A stretch of 19,916 nucleotides of DNA from Candidatus Hydrothermarchaeota archaeon (lineage in GTDB: Archaea; CAYFZR01). Position numbers and translations under genes: made by a program. The notes beneath the pieces are model-generated. The model made no database searches and was not told the origin of the DNA. It was given only the letters and a program-made list of their open reading frames with translations. Where the stretch lies: positions 1 through 19,916 of the forward strand of contig JBHIEG010000028.1 of assembly GCA_046760505.1 (NCBI GenBank). Reading direction: 5' to 3'. This document shows positions 213 through 10,535 of this stretch, piece after piece (the stretch's first letter is position 1; each line of letters opens with the position of its first letter).

Positions 213-269
213 AAAACCCTTAAATATTTTAATGATATTTAATTAGTAATTACATTTAATTAGAGGTGA
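213..269 (+). promoter_or_regulatory. Putative archaeal promoter (BRE/TATA), candidate operator and SD of the sulfate-activation operon
   Basis: AAAACCC precedes TTAAATAT (220-227). The ATTTAATTAG direct repeat (237-246 and 254-263) brackets the palindrome GTAATTAC (246-253). SD GAGGTGA lies at 263-269, before the ATG at 276. Confidence 0.55.
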
Positions 270-275
270 AAATAA

Positions 276-503
276 ATGGAAGAAAAGGAGGAGAAAAAAT
301 TCACCACGGTATCGATACCCACTCCTTTATTCGAGAAAATAAAGAAGAGAATTGAGGGAACTGGCTTTACATCTGTATCCAGTTACGTAACCTATGTTCT
401 GAGAGAGATAGTGGCTGAAGAAGAGGAAGAAGAAGAGCCCTTTACGGAAGAAGACGAGGAGAGAGTAAAGGAAAGACTCAGAGCCTTGGGCTACCTGGAC
501 TGA
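276..503 (+). CDS. CopG/ribbon-helix-helix family protein with acidic linker and C-terminal RLRALGYLD tail
   Basis: Beta-strand FTTVSIP, followed by helix LFEKIKKRIE, a G turn and helix SVSSYVTYVLRE, fits the RHH pattern. Strong SD; first gene of the operon. Confidence 0.8.
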   Translation: MEEKEEKKFTTVSIPTPLFEKIKKRIEGTGFTSVSSYVTYVLREIVAEEEEEEEPFTEEDEERVKERLRALGYLD

Positions 504-511
504 GGGATACC

Positions 512-1642
512 ATGATAAAGCCCCACGGAGGAAAGTTGATAAATAGGGTCTTCAGAGAAAAGGAAGAAGAGGCAAGGGAACTTCACAGGATAGCGATAAG
601 GAGAGATCAGGCAAAAGATGCTGAAAACATAGCAAATGGCGTTTTCTCCCCCTTGGAAGGCTTTTTAAATCAGGAGGATTATAAGAGCGTTCTCTATGAA
701 AAGAGACTTGCGAATGATATTCCATGGACCATTCCCATTGTACTGGATGTTTCCGAAGAAGATTCTAAGAAAATAAGTGAGGGAGAAGATTTAGCATTAA
801 CGTACAAGGACAAAATTGTGGCGATCCTCCATTTGGAAGAAAAATATGATTATGATAAGAAAGAGTTCGCTGAAAAGATATTCGGAACCGATGATAAAAA
901 TCATCCCGGCGTGAATAAAGTTTATGAAATGAAAGAAGTTCTTCTAGCAGGAAATATAGATCTTATAAGCGAGACAGACAATCCCTTTCTCAAATATACC
1001 CTGAAACCCATAGAAACGAGAATACTGTTCAAGGAGAAAGGATGGAAAACAATCGCGGGTTTTCAAACCAGAAATGTACCTCATTTAGGGCATGAATACG
1101 TTCAAAAGACCGCTTTAACATTTGTGGATGGAATATTCATAAATCCCGTGATAGGAAAAAAGAAAAAGGGAGATTTCAGAGATGATGTCATCCTTGAAAC
1201 CTACGAAGCGCTTATAAATAATTATTATTTGAAAGACAGCGCTGTTTTAAGCATTCTACAGTTCGAGATGAGATATGCAGGTCCAAGAGAGGCAATATTC
1301 CATTCTATTGTAAGAAAGAACTTTGGATGCACCCATTTCATAGTGGGAAGAGATCACGCGGGAGTAGGGGATTACTACGATCCCTATGAGGCTCAGGAGA
1401 TATTTAATGAGTTTCCGGATCTGGGTATAGTTCCTATTTTCTTTAAATCCTTCTTTTACTGCAAGAGATGTTCTGGCATAGCAAATGAAAAAACATGTCC
1501 GCATGATGAAAATCAACGCATAAAGTTCAGCGGAACAAGGATAAGAGAGGCTATTTCAAAAAAGAAGATTCCTCCAAAGGAATTGATGAGAAAGGAAGTT
1601 GCGGAGATAATACTTAGAAAGAAAAATCCTTTCGTGGTCTGA
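512..1642 (+). CDS. sat: Sulfate adenylyltransferase (ATP sulfurylase, Sat type)
   Basis: N-terminal PHGGKL, FSPLEGF, FQTRNVPHLGH (QxRN and HxxH), VGRDHAG, and a CKRC...CPH zinc site. Confidence 0.97.
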   Translation: MIKPHGGKLINRVFREKEEEARELHRIAIRRDQAKDAENIANGVFSPLEGFLNQEDYKSVLYEKRLANDIPWTIPIVLDVSEEDSKKISEGEDLALTYKDKIVAILHLEEKYDYDKKEFAEKIFGTDDKNHPGVNKVYEMKEVLLAGNIDLISETDNPFLKYTLKPIETRILFKEKGWKTIAGFQTRNVPHLGHEYVQKTALTFVDGIFINPVIGKKKKGDFRDDVILETYEALINNYYLKDSAVLSILQFEMRYAGPREAIFHSIVRKNFGCTHFIVGRDHAGVGDYYDPYEAQEIFNEFPDLGIVPIFFKSFFYCKRCSGIANEKTCPHDENQRIKFSGTRIREAISKKKIPPKELMRKEVAEIILRKKNPFVV

Positions 1643-2599
1643 ATGAAAAGAACTCTAATAATTCATCACTGGGACACAGATGGGATATGCTCTACTGCTT
1701 TACTTTTAAACTATCTTAAAGGATATATAAAAAACACCACTCCTGAAATAGGAAATTATTTTCTAAGAGATTCAGAGATAGAGGAATATGAAGATTATGA
1801 ATCCATAGTAATAGCCGATATAAGTATTCCGAGAGAAGACGTTCTGAAGATCAAAGAGAAAACAAACGCAGATATCATGATATTCGATCATCATTTGCAA
1901 GAGGAGATCAAGGAAGTATTTCATTGCAATCCTATTTTGAGAGGAGAGAGTCCGGAGATATATCCATCCACATCATGGGTGATAAACGATTATCTTAAAA
2001 ATCCTGTAAGCCTTCTATCGGTTCTCGGAGCGGTGGGAGATGCTGGAGAGAAGATAAGGGAAAATGAGTTCATCTTTCAAAAAATAAGGGAAAACATCGA
2101 TTTAAGATTTGAAGATCTGCTAAAAATGACAGAGCTAATAGATTCTAACTACAAGATTAATGACAGAAAGGGAGTAGAGAATGCGGTACATTATCTTTTA
2201 AAGAATATTAATCATCCTGAAAGAATTTTAGAAAATAGAGAATGGAATAAGAATCTAAGAAAAATAAATGTGGAGATTCAAAAGATCTTGGAAGAGCCCT
2301 CTCTATTCGAGGATGATTCTCTTATTCTTAAAGAATTTGAATCTGATTACAGCATAATTTCTTCTATAGCGAGAAATCTAGCATGGAACGCAAAAAAGAC
2401 AGCTATTGTCATCAACAAAGGCTTCTTCAAAGATAGAGATCAGATATATGTGAGAGGCGATGGATGTTTAGATAGAATTTTAGAGTTAGCAAGGGAGAGA
2501 GGCTACTCTTCTGGAGGAAAAAAGGAAGTAGTGGGTATAGTTTTGCCTAAAGAAGAATCTGAGAAATTTCTGGATAAAATACTGGAGGAACTGAGATGA
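1643..2599 (+). CDS. DHH family phosphoesterase (possible PAP phosphatase)
   Basis: DHH motifs HHWDTDG, IADI, FDHH and GAVGD; degenerate DHHA1-like SGGKKEVVG; starts immediately after the sat stop codon. Confidence 0.85.
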   Translation: MKRTLIIHHWDTDGICSTALLLNYLKGYIKNTTPEIGNYFLRDSEIEEYEDYESIVIADISIPREDVLKIKEKTNADIMIFDHHLQEEIKEVFHCNPILRGESPEIYPSTSWVINDYLKNPVSLLSVLGAVGDAGEKIRENEFIFQKIRENIDLRFEDLLKMTELIDSNYKINDRKGVENAVHYLLKNINHPERILENREWNKNLRKINVEIQKILEEPSLFEDDSLILKEFESDYSIISSIARNLAWNAKKTAIVINKGFFKDRDQIYVRGDGCLDRILELARERGYSSGGKKEVVGIVLPKEESEKFLDKILEELR

Positions 2600-3960
2600 G
2601 GGTTTTAGTGATAGGCCTGGACTCTGCTCCCCCGGAGCTGGTATTCGATGAATTCATAGATGAGCTTCCCAACATAAAGAAAATGGTTGAAAATGGTATT
2701 TATGGTAAATTAGAGAGTATTCATCCTCCCATAACAATTCCTGCATGGATATCCATGGCAACAAGCAAGAGTCCTGGCAAACTGGGACTCTACGGATTCA
2801 GACACAGAAAGAATTACTCTTATAAAGATATCTGGATTGCAAATTCCCATTCCATTAAAGAAAAAGCGATCTGGGATATTTTAGCAGAGCATGATAAAAA
2901 ATCCTGTTTGGTAGGAGTTCCTCCAAGCTATCCTCCCAAAAAAATAAACGGCTGGTTGATATCCTGCTTCATAACTCCTGATACAAAAAAAGATTATACC
3001 TATCCTAAAGAATTGAAAAGAGAAATAGAGAGCCTGGTGGGAGAATACATCGTAGATGTTGAATTTAGAACCGATGAAAAGGATAAACTGCTGAAAGAAA
3101 TCTATGAAATGACAGAGAAGAGATTTGAGGTAATTAAATATCTCCTGCAAAATAAAGACTGGGACTTCTTCATGTTTGTGGAAATAGGCTTGGATAGAGT
3201 ACAGCATGCATTCTGGAAGTTCTTTGATAAGGAGCATCATCTCTATCAGAAAAGCGAATACGAAAACGTAATTAAAGACTACTACAGGTATCTGGACAGA
3301 GAAATTGGAGATCTTCTTTCTATAGCAAGGGATGCCATTATATTAATTGTTTCTGACCATGGCGCAAAAAGAATGAAAGGTGCTTTTTGTATAAACGAGT
3401 GGCTGATAGAAAAGGGATATCTAAGGCTAAAGAACAAGCCAGATAGAATCATAAGTTTGGATAAGGCAGAGATAGACTGGAAAAATACAAAAGCATGGGG
3501 CTGGGGCGGTTATTACGCGAGAATTTTCTTGAATGTGGAGGGAAGAGAGCCTCAGGGAACAATAAAGCCCGCTAGTTATGAAAGTTTCAGAGATGAAATT
3601 GCAAGGGAAATAATGAATATAAGAGACTCGCAGGAAAATCCCATGGATAATAAGATTTTAAAGCCAGATGAGATTTTTGATGAATACAACGGAGACTATC
3701 CGGATCTCATGGTTTACCTCGACGATTTATACTGGAGATCAGCCGGCACGATAGGACATAATTCCTTATATTTAAAGGAAAACGATACAGGTCCTGATGA
3801 TGCGGTTCACTCTGCGCATGGAATTTTCATAATATACGATCCAAGGAAGAAGATCGGAAAAGAGGTTGATGCAAGCATACTGGATATTGCTCCCACGATT
3901 CTGGATCTCATGGGAATACCTGTTCCCCGTGATATGGAAGGTAGCATTATAAGGGTGTAA
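2596..3960 (+). CDS. Alkaline phosphatase superfamily protein (type I phosphodiesterase/nucleotide pyrophosphatase family)
   Basis: VLVIGLDSA, PPITIPAW (Thr nucleophile position), DRVQH, VSDHG, DAVHSAHG, SILDIAPTIL and DMEG. No signal peptide. ATGA overlap with the DHH gene. Confidence 0.9.
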   Translation: MRVLVIGLDSAPPELVFDEFIDELPNIKKMVENGIYGKLESIHPPITIPAWISMATSKSPGKLGLYGFRHRKNYSYKDIWIANSHSIKEKAIWDILAEHDKKSCLVGVPPSYPPKKINGWLISCFITPDTKKDYTYPKELKREIESLVGEYIVDVEFRTDEKDKLLKEIYEMTEKRFEVIKYLLQNKDWDFFMFVEIGLDRVQHAFWKFFDKEHHLYQKSEYENVIKDYYRYLDREIGDLLSIARDAIILIVSDHGAKRMKGAFCINEWLIEKGYLRLKNKPDRIISLDKAEIDWKNTKAWGWGGYYARIFLNVEGREPQGTIKPASYESFRDEIAREIMNIRDSQENPMDNKILKPDEIFDEYNGDYPDLMVYLDDLYWRSAGTIGHNSLYLKENDTGPDDAVHSAHGIFIIYDPRKKIGKEVDASILDIAPTILDLMGIPVPRDMEGSIIRV

Positions 3961-3963
3961 GAA

Positions 3964-4491
3964 ATGGAAAAGGGATTTGTCATATGGCTCACAGGACTTC
4001 CTGCATCAGGCAAAACCACCATAGCAAGAGAATTAGAGAGTATTTTGAGAGATAAAGGAATTAAAGTAGAAGTATTTGATGGAGACGAGGTAAGAAAAAA
4101 ATTGAGCCCTGACTTAGGATTCAGCAAGAGAGATAGAGAAATTCATGCGAAAAGAGTGGCTTATGTCAGCAAACTTCTTGCCAGAAACGGTGTGGCAGTA
4201 ATAGTTGCTCTAATATCTCCATACAGAAAATTTAGAGAAAATGCAAGAAAGGAAATCGGCGATTTCATAGAGGTTTACGTGAAATGCTCTCTCGAAACAT
4301 GCATGAAAAGAGATCCCAAGGGTATATTCAAAAAGGCGTTGAGAGGAGAGATAAATAATTTGACAGGAGTCCAAGATCCCTATGAAGAGCCTTTGAATCC
4401 TGAAGTAACAGTTAATACAGAAGTAGAGACTCCTGAAGAAAGTACAATGAAAATAATAGAGAAACTCAAGGATCTTGGATATCTGGAGTGA
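3964..4491 (+). CDS. cysC: Adenylyl-sulfate (APS) kinase
   Basis: WLTGLPASGKTT P-loop, DGDEVR, LGFSKRDR, ISPYR, RDPKG and TGVQDPYEEP. Confidence 0.97.
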   Translation: MEKGFVIWLTGLPASGKTTIARELESILRDKGIKVEVFDGDEVRKKLSPDLGFSKRDREIHAKRVAYVSKLLARNGVAVIVALISPYRKFRENARKEIGDFIEVYVKCSLETCMKRDPKGIFKKALRGEINNLTGVQDPYEEPLNPEVTVNTEVETPEESTMKIIEKLKDLGYLE

Positions 4492-4495
4492 TGAA

Positions 4496-5284
4496 ATGGA
4501 TCCTGCTCACCTTATCATCGGCTTTGTAGTAGGCTTCTTGATAGGTCTTAGCGGAGTTGGAGGAGGAGCAATTTTAACTCCTCTACTAATTTTTTCCGGT
4601 GTTTTGCCGATGTATGCGGTGGGCTCTAGTCTGGTATATGCATCTCTTACAAAGAGCCTCGGCTCCGTATTGCATCATAGAAAGGACAATATAGAGTTCA
4701 GTACGGTTAAGATCCTACTCTTAGGAAGTGTTCCTGCCTCATTTTTAGGCATACTATTGCTCAACTACCTCAAAAGTAAATTTAGCTTCCAGTTCCTCAA
4801 CGCATTCATAAGTTCCTTGCTGGCCATAATTTTGATTCTGGTGGCAATCATATATTTCTCACAGATAATGGGGAGTGGAATTAAACTGAAGAATCCTTCT
4901 AAGAAGAAACTGATTTTAGCCGGCTTTATAGTAGGAATAACCGTTCAGCTAACATCTGTTGGAAGCGGAGTCTTGGTAACGTTGTTTTTGCTTCCCATTT
5001 TAGTTCCCAGAAAGGTGGTGGGAACCGATGTATTCCATGCATTCGTGCTGACAAGTTTCGCAGGTATGATGCAATTTGGCATTGGAAACGTGTTGCCCTC
5101 TCTGGTTCTTGTGCTTCTGATCGGATCGATTCCAGGAGTAGTAATAGGCGTGAGTCTGAGCTCCAGAATACCTATAAAGCCTTTTCATATAATTCTAACC
5201 TTTGTGATATTTTTCTCTGGATTGCTTTTGCTCCTGAAGAACTTTGGCTTCATCATGGTTACAGATTTCTTGCAGGAGAAATGA
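4496..5284 (+). CDS. TauE/SafE (TSUP) family sulfite/organosulfur transporter
   Basis: Duplicated motifs GLSGVGGGAILTP and TSVGSGVLVT, VVGTD, and many hydrophobic segments. Start moved from TTG 4475 to ATG 4496, which follows SD GGAGTGA and removes the overlap with cysC. Confidence 0.88.
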   Translation: MDPAHLIIGFVVGFLIGLSGVGGGAILTPLLIFSGVLPMYAVGSSLVYASLTKSLGSVLHHRKDNIEFSTVKILLLGSVPASFLGILLLNYLKSKFSFQFLNAFISSLLAIILILVAIIYFSQIMGSGIKLKNPSKKKLILAGFIVGITVQLTSVGSGVLVTLFLLPILVPRKVVGTDVFHAFVLTSFAGMMQFGIGNVLPSLVLVLLIGSIPGVVIGVSLSSRIPIKPFHIILTFVIFFSGLLLLLKNFGFIMVTDFLQEK

Positions 5285-7032: not shown

Positions 7033-7890
7033 TCATTCAACGTTTATCCAGAGATGAGTTTCGCGATAGGGTTCGGTAAAATTATTCTCTTTGTATAGTA
7101 AAAACTCCAACTTCAAATCCTTACCTTTTTTATTGGGAGTAAATATAATGGGCTCCTCGAAAGTCTCGTTGTGGTCTAGGCGCAGGGTTTTCTCAATTAA
7201 AGTTTCGTTGGATAGTTTTATTCTGAGCGTATAGTTGATCGTTTCGTATTCATGATTTACTATGCCCAGTATAACCTTTCCGGAATCTCCTAACTTCAAT
7301 TCAGTTGGATAATTCTTAGCAGATCCGTTTGGACCTAAAATGTAAAATTCCGTAAATCTTTCTCCTTTCTTTGGAGTTACAATAACGTATGCAAGCATGC
7401 ATACCGCTAAAAAGATGGAAATGATGAGAAAGATCGTCAGTATCTTGTCTACCTTACTTTTAGGCTTCTCAAAGATCTCTGCCTTAAATGATTCATAGAT
7501 CTCTTTAAATGGAACAAAAAATCTCTCCTCCTCTGGGAGTTTTAGTCTCCTTAGATGCGCGGTTACCACAAGCGCTAGGGTGAATACGGATAGAGTAACA
7601 ATTATCGGAATCAGTCTAATACCGAAGGGCGTGTAGTTTAAAACCAAGCCGAGCAATGGAACAACCGCTATGCTAAGTCCAAAACTCAAGGCAAATCTCT
7701 CTATTCCATCTAGATCTCCTTTTCTTGGAAATAAGGATGCTATCAATGCATATCCCGGCAGAAAAAGGACCATCATTATTCCAAGAATCACCCTGACTGG
7801 AGTCTTATTCAAGGGGGGAACGAGTACAAAGAGGAGTGTAAGTAGTACAAGCGCGGTTACGATTTGCAGATCTTTTGGAATCTTGAGCAT
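7033..7890 (-). CDS. DUF1616 domain membrane protein
   Basis: LFLPGYALIASLFP, ERFALSFGLSIAVVP, ERFTEFYILG...NYP, GIVNHEY and PYRETHLWINV are characteristic of archaeal DUF1616 proteins. Confidence 0.9.
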   Translation of the reverse strand: MLKIPKDLQIVTALVLLTLLFVLVPPLNKTPVRVILGIMMVLFLPGYALIASLFPRKGDLDGIERFALSFGLSIAVVPLLGLVLNYTPFGIRLIPIIVTLSVFTLALVVTAHLRRLKLPEEERFFVPFKEIYESFKAEIFEKPKSKVDKILTIFLIISIFLAVCMLAYVIVTPKKGERFTEFYILGPNGSAKNYPTELKLGDSGKVILGIVNHEYETINYTLRIKLSNETLIEKTLRLDHNETFEEPIIFTPNKKGKDLKLEFLLYKENNFTEPYRETHLWINVE

Positions 7891-7937
7891 ATGTTTAACT
7901 GAACTTTACATAAAAATAAGTTTATGCATGAGAATGT

Positions 7938-8252
7938 TCAAGATATGAGGACAAAATAGATCTTATTTATAAGTATGATGGTAAAAACTAATAACAAGGC
8001 TAAAATAGAGGCTTTTGTGCCGTTTGTCAGTGTTTTAATCCTTTTTGATATCGCTGACGTGGATAATTCCACTATGATCAAGAGCATGATAAGCGCTATG
8101 GTGGCAATCATTCCATTTGTCTCAAAATTCATGTGCAGTCCGGATACGGTAAGAGCATTGGTGGAAATCGCGCTGACACTTGATACAGAAGAAGTGGTTG
8201 TTGTGGTTGTGGTAACAGTAGAAGTGGTTGTGGTTATGGTCGATGAAATCAT
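7938..8252 (-). CDS. Small Thr/Ser-rich two-TM membrane protein
   Basis: N-terminal TTTTSTVTTTTTTTSS tract, then two hydrophobic helices separated by a basic loop. It has its own TATA box about 30 nt upstream and is co-oriented with its neighbours. Confidence 0.7.
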   Translation of the reverse strand: MISSTITTTTSTVTTTTTTTSSVSSVSAISTNALTVSGLHMNFETNGMIATIALIMLLIIVELSTSAISKRIKTLTNGTKASILALLLVFTIILINKIYFVLIS

Positions 8253-8275
8253 AAATGATATTCAAGCATACTCAT

Positions 8276-8292
8276 ATTTATAATTTTCTTTC
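8276..8292 (-). promoter_or_regulatory. BRE/TATA promoter for a probably leaderless transcript of the Thr-rich protein
   Basis: The minus strand reads GAAAGAAAA-TTATAAAT. The TATA box (8283-8276) starts 31 nt before the ATG at 8252, and there is no SD. Confidence 0.6.
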
Positions 8293-8303
8293 ATTATACT
8301 GAT

Positions 8304-8873
8304 CTAATCTCTTGTCTTTTGAATTATCCTATCTAACAGTTTTATCTCCTTTTCAGCGAAAAAAAGCGCTGTGTCATGGGCTTCTTCTACATTTTGCGTT
8401 ACAGGGGTACAAATCTGAATCATCATGCTGTACTTAAAGCTCGGAAGAAAGAATAAAACCTTGGATCTCCTCTCAAATATATTCAAGTACCATGCTATAA
8501 CCCATCTTTTTTCTCCGTTCTTTTCTACCAAAAGTTTCATCACATTTCTATCGTGGTAGATGGTTTTTTCTTTCGTTAATATGTTCCATCCGGCCAGTTT
8601 ATAGCATGTATACGGGTCCTGCAAACTTTTAAGCCCCCTACCTTTATAAAGCGCTATCCATGTCTTCACATCCTTGGATGTATACTGTTTTACGGCTACA
8701 GATTCTTTTTCTGATAGGGTAGACTCCCTGAATCCTGTTATAGTTGGAAACAACTCTTCCGATTTAAGCTCTGGAATTGAATCTCTTGGGAGAGGCTTTT
8801 GAACTATTAAAGGTATCCAAGACAGTATAAGTATGGTTAAGACAAGCAAGGCGTATCTCTGCTCTTTATTCAT
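8304..8873 (-). CDS. Exosortase-associated EpsI family protein (stand-alone)
   Basis: N-terminal TM, WIALY, and LQDPYTCYKLAGWNI, which matches the EpsI H-x-P-x-x-C-Y-x-x-x-G-W motif with the His lost. VIAWY follows. Overlaps the exosortase stop. Confidence 0.72.
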   Translation of the reverse strand: MNKEQRYALLVLTILILSWIPLIVQKPLPRDSIPELKSEELFPTITGFRESTLSEKESVAVKQYTSKDVKTWIALYKGRGLKSLQDPYTCYKLAGWNILTKEKTIYHDRNVMKLLVEKNGEKRWVIAWYLNIFERRSKVLFFLPSFKYSMMIQICTPVTQNVEEAHDTALFFAEKEIKLLDRIIQKTRD

Positions 8874-9657
8874 GGGCGAGCACCCTCAAATAAACTATCA
8901 TCAGGATCATGAACATTAACCAGCCTCCAAATATGTGAAACACTCCTTGAGCCAAGTGCATATTGTTTAGTGCTATCAGCAAGATCAGCATTAGTCTCAT
9001 GACATTAATTGCAGGTATGAGTAAGAGTATCGAAAGGCTTAAAATAGTTTTTCTCTTTAGGCTTTGGAGAGGTAAAAGAAAGATAAACGCTGTAAACACA
9101 AAAAAAGGTATCAGGATCTCTCCGCTACTGCAGAGAGGAGTTATATAGAACATAGGCACTCCTTCGTTGAGTATAACCGTATCTTTTAGAGATAGATCAG
9201 TACCCAATCCATTTAATATGTCGATGGCTAAGTTAGCCTCTAAAAGTGATAGTTTGGCTCCAAAATAGGTTATCACGTAGTAGTTTGGTGGTATTAAAAA
9301 TATTAAAAAGAGTATTGAAGGAATTGCTTTTTTTACCTTTTGAACAGGATAAAAGAGCAGTAAATAGCCAAATATGAAAGCCATTAGAGACAGAATCATT
9401 ACTTCCATCGAGAGATAGAACAGATTATACCTGAGAAAAGAGACAAGTACCAGTAAAATCAGACCCGCTACCCTGAAAAATTTTTCATTTTCACAGGGGA
9501 TTTTCCATCTTTCTTTAAATATAATAAAGGACATTATGGGCACCAGGATGCCGTGCCTTGACCACGGATCTTCGTACCAAATTGATAGAAGGCGAAAGAT
9601 CTCACTGCCGAAAAGAGGAATCAATGCGAGAATAAATACTGCATTTATGAATCGCAT
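8866..9657 (-). CDS. Exosortase/archaeosortase family transpeptidase (EpsH-like)
   Basis: WYEDPWSRHGILVP N-terminal motif, FLIFLIPP, and a catalytic triad context of PLCSS (Cys), INVMRL (Arg) and VFHIFGG (His). Start moved from 9852 to ATG 9657 to remove the overlap with the CPBP gene. Confidence 0.88.
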   Translation of the reverse strand: MRFINAVFILALIPLFGSEIFRLLSIWYEDPWSRHGILVPIMSFIIFKERWKIPCENEKFFRVAGLILLVLVSFLRYNLFYLSMEVMILSLMAFIFGYLLLFYPVQKVKKAIPSILFLIFLIPPNYYVITYFGAKLSLLEANLAIDILNGLGTDLSLKDTVILNEGVPMFYITPLCSSGEILIPFFVFTAFIFLLPLQSLKRKTILSLSILLLIPAINVMRLMLILLIALNNMHLAQGVFHIFGGWLMFMILMIVYLRVLAHE

Positions 9658-9682
9658 ACCGAGTAACTCTGTGTAGGATAAC

Positions 9683-9697
9683 TCTATAAATTTCTTT
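9683..9697 (-). promoter_or_regulatory. Internal BRE/TATA-like promoter upstream of the exosortase
   Basis: The minus strand reads AAAGAAA-TTTATAGA. The TATA box (9690-9683) starts 33 nt before ATG 9657. Confidence 0.45.
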
Positions 9698-10535
9698 ATA
9701 AAAATTTGTGATACGGGAGCATCTGAAACAACACCATGTTCACCATGAAGTGAGCGGCTATGGGAGTCATCAGACTTCTCGTAACATAAAAAATAATTCC
9801 AAATACTATTCCTACGTAGAATGTAAAAGCGATCTCCATGGAACTTAGCCATATGCTGTGCATGCCGCTGAATATAATGCTTGTCAATATGATTGCATAG
9901 AAAGAATCCGTAACCTTCAGTGCATTCGAGAGAAAAATCCCCCTGTATAGAAGCTCTTCTGTGAACCCAAGCATGAAAAATGTAGATACAGATACGAACG
10001 GATAGTAAGGTAAGACCTTTCCGGGAGAGAGTATTAAAAATTCAGTTATTCCAAGTATGGCTCCGAGTATCAGACCCAGGACAATGTTTTTCACGAAGTT
10101 TTCTCTGATCAGCCCTAGATCCCTAAGATCAAAGCCCTGATGATAGGCAAGGATCATGGAGGCTGGCAGCAGTATGGAATATGTTATCTGAAACTGATAG
10201 TGGGTCAGGAATAGATTTAAGGGAAGTCCGGAATTTACCAGACGGAGTAATGCGAAGAGTATAAAACTCTGAATTACGAGAACGATATTTCTTTCATCTA
10301 TAAAGAGAGGAGAAAGCACTGCGAGGATTATGAGTGCTACATACGCTACTATGCCCCAGTAGGTTGAGTGGTAGGAATAAATGCCCTCGCTGGATAGGAG
10401 AAACAGCGTAAATATCAATGGATACTTCATCTTGCTTAGGTTAAATCTTTCTAAGGAGAGATATTTAATAGCCAGTACAATGCAGGAGATTATTATAAGT
10501 ATATTCAAGATTAATACGGGAAAGCCGATGTTCAT
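9696..10535 (-). CDS. CPBP (Abi/type II CAAX, Rce1-like) intramembrane glutamic endopeptidase
   Basis: Three CPBP motifs, TEELLYRG (EExxxR), FSGMH (FxxxH) and AHFMVN (HxxxN), in a multi-TM protein. ATGA overlap with the 791-aa gene. Confidence 0.92.
   Translation of the reverse strand: MNIGFPVLILNILIIISCIVLAIKYLSLERFNLSKMKYPLIFTLFLLSSEGIYSYHSTYWGIVAYVALIILAVLSPLFIDERNIVLVIQSFILFALLRLVNSGLPLNLFLTHYQFQITYSILLPASMILAYHQGFDLRDLGLIRENFVKNIVLGLILGAILGITEFLILSPGKVLPYYPFVSVSTFFMLGFTEELLYRGIFLSNALKVTDSFYAIILTSIIFSGMHSIWLSSMEIAFTFYVGIVFGIIFYVTRSLMTPIAAHFMVNMVLFQMLPYHKFL

Follow-up and report, generated by a model that had tools for sequence, protein, structure and literature searches.

To our knowledge, nothing is known about how sulfate activation is regulated in archaea. 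The closest described counterpart of the system considered here is the Pyrococcus yayanosii cluster pych_17520-17570 (Jin et al. 2021, PMC8268124), which encodes a putative copG transcription factor, ATP sulfurylase, an assayed DHH-family pApase, a phosphodiesterase, adenosine-5'-phosphosulfate (APS) kinase and TauE. In the relevant passages of that paper, the gene at the head of this already known operon, PYCH_17520, is only called a putative copG factor with a presumed regulator role, and neither an operator, nor a tail, nor a partner is given for it. The type I phosphodiesterase of the cluster was "speculated" to degrade pyrophosphate (PPi) (PMC8268124), and its Thermococcus onnurineus counterpart TON_1705, which is also named in PMC4463584, is tabulated as a pyrophosphatase with a kcat of 2.1 per s and a Km of 18.8 uM (PMC9653972, Table 1). 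We analysed a stretch of 19,916 nucleotides (nt) from a Candidatus Hydrothermarchaeota archaeon (positions 1 to 19,916 of contig JBHIEG010000028.1, hereafter the window), in which a ribbon-helix-helix (RHH) gene with a 75-amino-acid (aa) product heads an operon that matches the published archaeal sulfate-activation cluster in gene content and order. On the basis of gene order, on which the likeness of the RHH gene to PYCH_17520 also rests, the window genes are presumably orthologous to their P. yayanosii and T. onnurineus counterparts. We propose, with a probability of roughly 0.45, that the RHH protein is an autorepressor of this operon for 3'-phosphoadenosine-5'-phosphosulfate (PAPS) synthesis and that its C-terminal LGY tail docks in trans on the operon's own tail-less enzyme, a nucleotide pyrophosphatase/phosphodiesterase (NPP)-type member of the alkaline phosphatase (AP) superfamily.

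Several known systems share part of this arrangement. In the cysteine synthase complex the C-terminal tail of CysE plugs into CysK, and CysK also partners the repressor CymR. The LGY system would resemble this case by analogy, both combining sulfur metabolism, tail docking and enzyme-coupled transcription, but the CysE tail ends in Ile and enters a pyridoxal-phosphate active site, whereas the helix of the LGY system has 15 residues, ends in LGY and lies on an NPP fold; the two systems are not related in fold or motif. The Mnt repressor is an RHH protein with a C-terminal tetramerisation helix and tandem operator sites, and the window protein likewise has a separate C-terminal helix and tandem operators, but its helix is common to enzymes and is modelled on an enzyme. 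RHH antitoxins (of the ParD, CcdA and RelB type, with conditional cooperativity) also have an N-terminal RHH domain whose operator precedes their operon, and a flexible linker that leads to a C-terminal segment folding on the co-encoded protein. Unlike in these antitoxins, the partner here would be a metabolic NPP-type enzyme, and the tail is also built into homologs of that enzyme; no toxin family was found among the operon neighbours Sat, DHH, AP, CysC and TauE, and the protein is not classed as an antitoxin. MetJ and NikR are RHH proteins that likewise repress metabolic operons and are coupled to a metabolite or a metal, but the window protein has no ligand-binding domain, only a 21-residue tail following the RHH domain. 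The features of the window that matter for the proposal are the following:

230..245, strand not assigned: operator copy 1, TAATGATATTTAATTA, one mismatch to TAATTA-N4-TAATTA
247..262, strand not assigned: operator copy 2, TAATTACATTTAATTA, perfect palindromic half-sites
262..267, + strand: Shine-Dalgarno-like GAGGTG, 8 nt ahead of the ATG, as read from the sequence
276..503, + strand: RHH gene, stop included, 75-aa product matched by 2354 database clusters at E<=1e-3
300..428, + strand: RHH DNA-binding domain, residues 9-51, with the KFTTVSIP extended segment, helix 16-25 and helix 34-51 in the AlphaFold2 (AF2) model
414..437, + strand: acidic linker, residues 47-54 (AEEEEEEE)
438..500, + strand: LGY tail module, residues 55-75 (PFTEEDEERVKERLRALGYLD), with helix 58-70
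2596..3960, + strand: tail-less NPP/AP-superfamily enzyme, 454 aa (PF01663, E=3.8e-46), the modelled docking partner

The RHH protein (MEEKEEKKFTTVSIPTPLFEKIKKRIEGTGFTSVSSYVTYVLREIVAEEEEEEEPFTEEDEERVKERLRALGYLD) ends in ...AEEEEEEEPFTEEDEERVKERLRALGYLD, that is, in the acidic linker followed by the LGY tail, as the open reading frame (ORF) at 276..503 confirms, and the 454-aa PF01663 enzyme ends in ...PRDMEGSIIRV. Both endings had been described in the original prediction, which was made from the letters of the window alone. The cysC gene starts 4 nt past the stop of the AP gene, so that no tail is concealed downstream of the latter, and the enzyme does stop at DMEGSIIRV.

The tail is highly conserved. 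Among the 120 best matches listed of the 2354 clusters, identity to the RHH protein was 77-100%, and the database annotations of its relatives are CopG-family or Arc/MetJ-type regulators. A one-genome-per-species scan found 373 relatives, the best 80 of which (70-89% identity; hereafter the 80 loci) were compared. They belong to Thermoplasmata, DHVE2/Aciduliprofundum, Hadarchaeota, Bathyarchaeia, Asgard archaea, Nitrososphaerota, Chloroflexota and Actinomycetota, and the RHH proteins of all 80 keep the tail. An alignment of 26 family members shows no variation at P55, F56, D60, R63, K65, R67, L68, A70, L71, G72 and Y73, and RL..LGY is retained in second RHH copies (55-65% identity) and in the proteins of two bacterial loci, L123 and L128 (26-30% identity).

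The same tail is found on enzymes. An exhaustive search with the AP enzyme gave 14,653 representatives (50% clusters) at E<=1e-3, of which 150 were listed. Among these listed matches, 28 carry L..[LIMV]GY within their last 14 residues, usually as [FYW]S.E[DE]E..[IV]K.RL..LGY (for example ...FSKEDEEKIKERLRSLGYMG), and R, L, G and Y were invariant in 14 AP tails. In an alignment of 126 representatives, 24 end in the LGY tail and a few in ALYL or K/R-rich variants, and 80 stop at most 12 residues past the DMEG glycine, like the window's enzyme. A hidden Markov model (HMM) built from the RHH tails alone and searched in a database of 5958 sequences matched AP C-termini over profile positions 3-21 (best P0270, E=7.7e-12; 10 representatives at E<1e-3), so that the module is truly common to RHH tails and AP enzymes. 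Residues 56-75 of the window protein show every element of the module: an aromatic residue, S/T, an acidic run and [IV]x[EQ]RLxxLGY followed by 0-2 residues. These comparisons give good support to the view that the LGY tail is a real portable C-terminal module common to the RHH regulator and NPP-type enzymes. The original prediction had placed such tails on both AP-superfamily proteins and sulfotransferases; the former holds, but none of the sulfotransferase ORFs in the 80 loci is tailed. Two word-indexed searches were uninformative, RHH residues 36-75 against longer proteins returning 2 over-long RHH proteins from 115 candidates, and P0270 residues 467-506 returning the query alone from 5 candidates. 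In Thermoplasmata loci L176-L195, a K/R-rich helix (...SELEKIRELRKKF and similar) takes the place of LGY at the end of most AP paralogs, which are 500-550 aa long, and the C-terminal helix of the AP family thus has several flavours.

An ending in LGY[ILMVF] plus 0-2 residues is found on only 5 of the 5745 ORFs of >=60 aa in the window's genome. They are those of the RHH protein, CysC, a CysD on contig C54 and a Lon-like protein, and one that is probably spurious; three of the five are sulfate-activation proteins. The L..LGY motif occurs 22 times in the 592,434 residues of long ORFs, and apart from the RHH protein itself the tail HMM found nothing below 0.08 among the ORFs of this genome. CysC, which ends in ...KIIEKLKDLGYLE, had been said to have a similar tail. 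Its ending is of the LGY type, but it was rejected as the same module, being the native last helix of APS kinases (HMM E=0.91): the window protein aligns to the last residue of 7yq0 (...KKLMELGYL), 8a8h (...AQKLGYL) and 5cb6 (...LVDLKYIE), and its LGYLE ending belongs to the kinase fold and is retained in the solved APS kinase structures. The ending of the C54 CysD (QKLRALGYM) was rejected as well: in an alignment it coincides with the native end of 1zun_A, and it matches the tail profile at the last 8 positions only (E=0.082).

Structure models place the tail on the enzyme both in cis and in trans. The model of the tail-bearing homolog P0152 (492 aa) has a predicted local distance difference test (pLDDT) score of 96.7, with the blocks holding tail helix 475-487 at 86-96, which suggests that this helix packs on its own NPP domain. 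The window enzyme (107-row alignment) was then modelled together with RHH residues 41-75 in three runs and three controls. The runs scored 0.65, 0.66 and 0.64 against 0.02 for the best control, had at least 72% of contacts in common and a partner pLDDT of at least 61; on a calibration that is rough only, own alignments having been used, of 157 solved complexes 116 reach this level, and of 215 mismatched pairs 2 do. On the RHH side the modelled interface consists of residues 55-56, 60-61, 63-65 and 67-75, every invariant tail residue included. On the enzyme side it consists of residues 67-69, 81, 83-86, 112-113, 125-126, 128-129, 132, 154, 156-158, 287-289, 303-305, 384-385, 396, 398 and 401, among which lie the family-wide motifs YGFRxR (67-69), FLTP (125-128) and DVxxFR (154-158). 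No close solved relative was found by sequence, the nearest folds being NPPs at 12-16% identity, and the score is therefore not the memory of a solved complex. The complex model supports binding and speaks for the earlier suggestion that the tail may dock on the enzyme in trans, with the invariant tail residues as the predicted contacts; in this model, docking on the operon's tail-less enzyme could provide an antitoxin-like coupling between enzyme and repressor.

The remainder of the protein is a DNA-binding domain. The AF2 monomer model (overall pLDDT 83; 93-95 at residues 11-40 and 69 at residues 51-60) shows an extended segment 9-15, helices 16-25 and 34-51, a weaker linker and a separate helix 58-70. 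This is the strand-helix-helix order of the RHH superfamily, with segment 9-15 unpaired in the model, in which a single chain was folded. The nearest folds in Foldseek were the RHH proteins ParD2, Arc, ParD and Omega, all at E-values above 1, as expected for 40 residues (top match ParD2, E=1.8, root-mean-square deviation 1.8 over 41 columns). There was no significant match to a curated RHH sequence family: Pfam gave nothing at E<=0.01, the best sequence match, to the NCBIfam NikR model, was weak (E=0.0012, 19 bits against a cut-off of 119), and a PDB profile search reached NikR at E=0.2.

Alignment of the upstream regions of the loci revealed a palindrome, TAATTA-N4-TAATTA, often arrayed, just ahead of the ribosome-binding site. 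With up to one mismatch it is present within 160 nt upstream of the gene in 71 of the 80 loci, the window included, and it occurs 140 times in 12.6 kb of upstream DNA against 6 times in the remaining 844 kb of locus DNA, an approximately 1500-fold enrichment. It is kept in GC-rich loci and in bacterial loci, and in L078, where the RHH gene comes last, it sits upstream of sat instead. Many loci have arrays of 2 to 5 repeats with a spacing of ~10 bp. The 2.17-Mb genome of the window contains 18 operator-like matches, among which the pair before the RHH gene is the only paired site; the others are all single sites, and no second regulon target was evident among them. From the location of the operator before its own operon we infer that the RHH protein is an autoregulator, and the positions of the sites suggest repression. 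No description of the tail or the operator was found in the full-text literature searched, and both the operator and the 21-residue tail are apparently new.

Computation supplied the fold, the operator, the operon linkage, the module's identity and the modelled docking; repression, binding in the cell and the direction of coupling are inferences. RHH dimers most likely bind the two TAATTA-N4-TAATTA sites at 230-262, which would place them between the AT-rich promoter region and the RHH start codon. A flexible acidic linker would join the RHH domain to a 21-residue portable docking helix, the same helix that ends about one fifth of the enzyme's homologs among the matches listed and that appears to fold back onto the enzyme there. 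In the window the repressor bears the helix and the enzyme is without it, and in the best-supported mechanism the tail would dock in trans into the enzyme's conserved groove, which is made of the family motifs YGFRxR, FLTP and DVxxFR. Repression could thereby respond to how much enzyme is present or to its state, as when the tail of an RHH antitoxin binds its toxin, and conversely the repressor could modulate the enzyme. If true, the docking would clearly exemplify the transfer of a structural element from an enzyme to its transcription factor, as well as a metabolic use of antitoxin-style regulation, and would be relevant to the true role of the NPP-type enzyme, pyrophosphatase or other. PAPS operons headed by this family occur in Thermoplasmata, DHVE2, Bathy-, Had- and Asgard archaea and some Chloroflexota and Actinomycetota, and the proposal offers a defined operator, a defined 21-residue interaction module and a named candidate partner for work at the bench.

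A wider version of this proposal is rather doubtful. In it the LGY helix would be a portable plug for a conserved groove of this NPP clade beside the catalytic centre, which the repressor supplies where the enzyme has lost its own, the two forming a feedback pair of toxin-antitoxin type for a metabolic operon. The enzyme could then act as co-repressor or anti-repressor while being regulated by the repressor as one of its subunits, and archaeal and bacterial sulfation enzymes might use the helix generally as an assembly tag.

A number of observations weigh against docking as proposed. The complex model may merely echo the cis arrangement of the homologs, showing likeness and not binding. Conservation of the groove is 0.55 in tail-less and 0.41 in tail-bearing representatives, against 0.48 over all positions, and the majority of the aligned representatives (80/126) are tail-less anyway; a groove conserved in tail-less homologs generally may serve another role, for example substrate binding. 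The gene content of the 80 loci was determined by tblastn, a match of >=45% identity being counted as an AP ortholog. An AP enzyme is present in 20 of the 80, always without a tail, and 16 of the 20 are orthologs; where at least 5 kb of downstream sequence is available, an ortholog is present in 14 of 62 loci. The tail is just as constant elsewhere: 51 loci without AP keep F56, D60, E61, R67, L68, R69, L71, G72 and Y73 invariant, so that something besides this enzyme constrains the tail there. AP docking cannot, on this comparison, be the sole role of the tail. Between 18 loci with AP and these 51, the only differences are at position 55 (P to A/V) and position 63 (R to K); the two residues belong to the modelled enzyme interface, but their shifts are confounded by phylogeny.

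The window's own phylum and class have only two species genomes in the collection, and the survey covered 129 genomes of the class of genome G001. The RHH gene was found in 75 and an AP-family match (E<=1e-20) in 44 of them; 42 had both, 33 only RHH, 2 only AP and 52 neither, which means that RHH is present in 42 of 44 genomes with an AP-family match against 33 of 85 without one, a point in favour of the proposal, kinship being ignored in this comparison. Counting orthologs only, the AP enzyme is present in just 5 of the 75 RHH-bearing genomes, which speaks against the proposal; these five are 458-460 aa long and 61-63% identical, and none lies farther than 3.5 kb from the RHH gene. In a sample of 20 AP paralogs from the other RHH-bearing genomes, an LGY tail was seen in 1, 3 ended at the MDG motif and the majority had a K/R-rich helical tail of their own, another unfavourable result. 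The expectation that tail-less AP enzymes co-occur with RHH-LGY genes was thus not borne out: the two are distributed largely independently, with an AP ortholog in 16/80 loci and 5/75 genomes.

Complementarity of tails was examined in 80 metagenome loci around a bacterial AP clade, seeded by five tail-bearing AP proteins. A further LGY-tailed ORF was found in none of the loci of the 51 tailed enzymes and in 4 of the loci of the 28 tail-less ones, namely small RHH-LGY proteins in L123 and L128, a tail-bearing AP paralog in L140 and a doubtful 76-aa ORF in L146 (Fisher test, p=0.014, uncorrected for kinship and not to be leaned on). In L123 and L128 the divergent RHH-LGY protein (26-30% identity) adjoins a tail-less AP gene, a recurrence that speaks for the proposal. 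When the 98 enzymes with a visible C-terminus were pooled, a small LGY protein was nearby for 0 of 50 tail-bearing and 22 of 48 tail-less enzymes. This pattern matches the prediction yet is no statistically independent evidence. The tail state changes only twice on the tree, leaving 3-4 independent pairs and no statistical power, which also counts against the proposal, as co-evolution of tail-less AP enzymes and RHH-LGY proteins therefore cannot be shown. Taken as a whole, the earlier interpretation is partly supported.

The constancy of the tail in AP-less loci also bears on other explanations. One, which we consider unlikely, is that the tail serves the repressor itself, joining RHH dimers on neighbouring operator repeats in a Mnt-like assembly that provides cooperativity, the enzyme docking only reflecting homology of the helices. 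The operator arrays of 2 to 5 repeats in many loci would suit this, as would a tail equally invariant in the 51 AP-less loci and an architecture of RHH domain, linker and short helix that probably resembles Mnt. However, the near-total conservation of the tail (four basic residues, Pro-Phe, Gly-Tyr) exceeds what an amphipathic helix needs, and the module is confidently packed in cis on enzyme models that look monomeric.

It is distinctly unlikely that the tail binds a more universal partner in sulfate activation, be it Sat, CysD/CysN, CysC, the DHH phosphatase or the small sulfotransferase, or that sulfate, APS, PAPS or 3'-phosphoadenosine-5'-phosphate (PAP) sets repression. Of the 80 RHH loci, 60 have Sat, 15 have CysD and 13 have CysN; either Sat or CysD is present in 75, CysC in 61 and the DHH protein in 58. 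Operon types that lack a common enzyme family (Sat or CysDN, AP or sulfotransferase) all have the invariant tail, its four conserved basic residues would suit an anionic ligand, and the CysD of the same genome ends in QKLRALGYM, all of which would favour such a partner. But no protein family is present in all loci, which makes a single partner hard to name, the native endings of CysD (E=0.082) and CysC (E=0.91) match only the last 8-12 profile positions, and a lone 21-residue helix makes a poor nucleotide pocket.

That the tail tyrosine is a covalent acceptor of sulfate, phosphate or adenosine monophosphate (AMP) handled by the AP-type enzyme, with the helix as substrate or pseudo-substrate, is very improbable: Gly-Tyr is invariant in RHH and AP tails and the modelled Y73 touches F68 and R69 of the conserved YGFRxR loop, but the modelled interface includes neither T47, the presumed nucleophile of the enzyme by NPP motifs, nor its presumed metal ligands, and some AP homologs have ALYL or K/R-rich helices in place of LGY. 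The report of the assayed counterpart TON_1705 as a pyrophosphatase (PMC9653972) also argues against it.

The other genes of the operon are:

512..1642, + strand: sat, ATP sulfurylase (PF01747, PF14306; NF003166 at 548 bits)
1643..2599, + strand: DHH-family protein (PF01368), probable PAP phosphatase, equal in position to the assayed pApase PYCH_17540 (PMC8268124) and, by gene order, probably orthologous to it
3964..4491, + strand: cysC, APS kinase (PF01583)
4475..5284, + strand: TauE/SafE-family membrane protein (PF01925, E=4.3e-36)

The DHH and AP genes overlap by 4 nt (2596-2599) and cysC and tauE by 17 nt (4475-4491), a tight packing that is consistent with a single transcript and translational coupling. 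The RHH gene heads nearly every one of the 80 loci, with Sat or CysD following it in 75 of them, which fits its proposed place at the head of the operon. Protein clustering and Pfam searches in these loci showed a small sulfotransferase in 43 and a Na/sulfate symporter in 28, as well as a Usp protein and a sugar nucleotidyltransferase. The slot between the DHH gene and cysC holds either an NPP-type enzyme or a sulfotransferase of ~190 aa, almost never both (L003, L005, L007, L012 and others). The two look like alternatives for one slot, which would be odd for a mere pyrophosphatase. P0146 (712 aa) is a natural fusion of an APS kinase, an NPP-type enzyme and an LGY tail, which ties the AP enzyme family to PAPS metabolism.

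A second sulfate-activation set is present on contig C54 of the window's genome (2117-5756, L082), consisting of CysD (263 aa), CysN (419 aa) and a 303-aa PF01663 paralog; it adjoins a sugar nucleotidyltransferase, and neither an RHH gene nor an operator-like pair is found there. A genome of the same genus as the window's (G006, completeness 100) has no match to the RHH protein, which, together with the 80% identity to proteins of other phyla and of bacteria, suggests that the operon travels horizontally.

Some further gene arrangements were seen around AP genes. In L123 (2-2684) and L128 (3-4108) the order is an AP paralog, the divergent RHH-LGY gene, a gene for a 274-304-aa membrane protein with no Pfam match and the tail-less AP gene. 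In the soil and peat metagenome loci L137, L159, L163 and L147 the tail-less AP gene is followed by a fused Sat-CysC gene (590-609 aa) and, ~4 kb further on, by a phosphopantetheinyl-transferase/carrier protein and a second AP paralog; in L140 it is the second AP paralog that bears the LGY tail.

Downstream of the operon, the minus strand of the window from 7033 to 10535 encodes a DUF1616 membrane protein, a DUF3485-like protein, an EpsH-family exosortase/archaeosortase and a Rce1-like CAAX protease, which by their family assignments probably form a cell-surface processing set adjoining the sulfation operon. The next two large proteins of this stretch, of 791 and 473 aa, are without a Pfam match.

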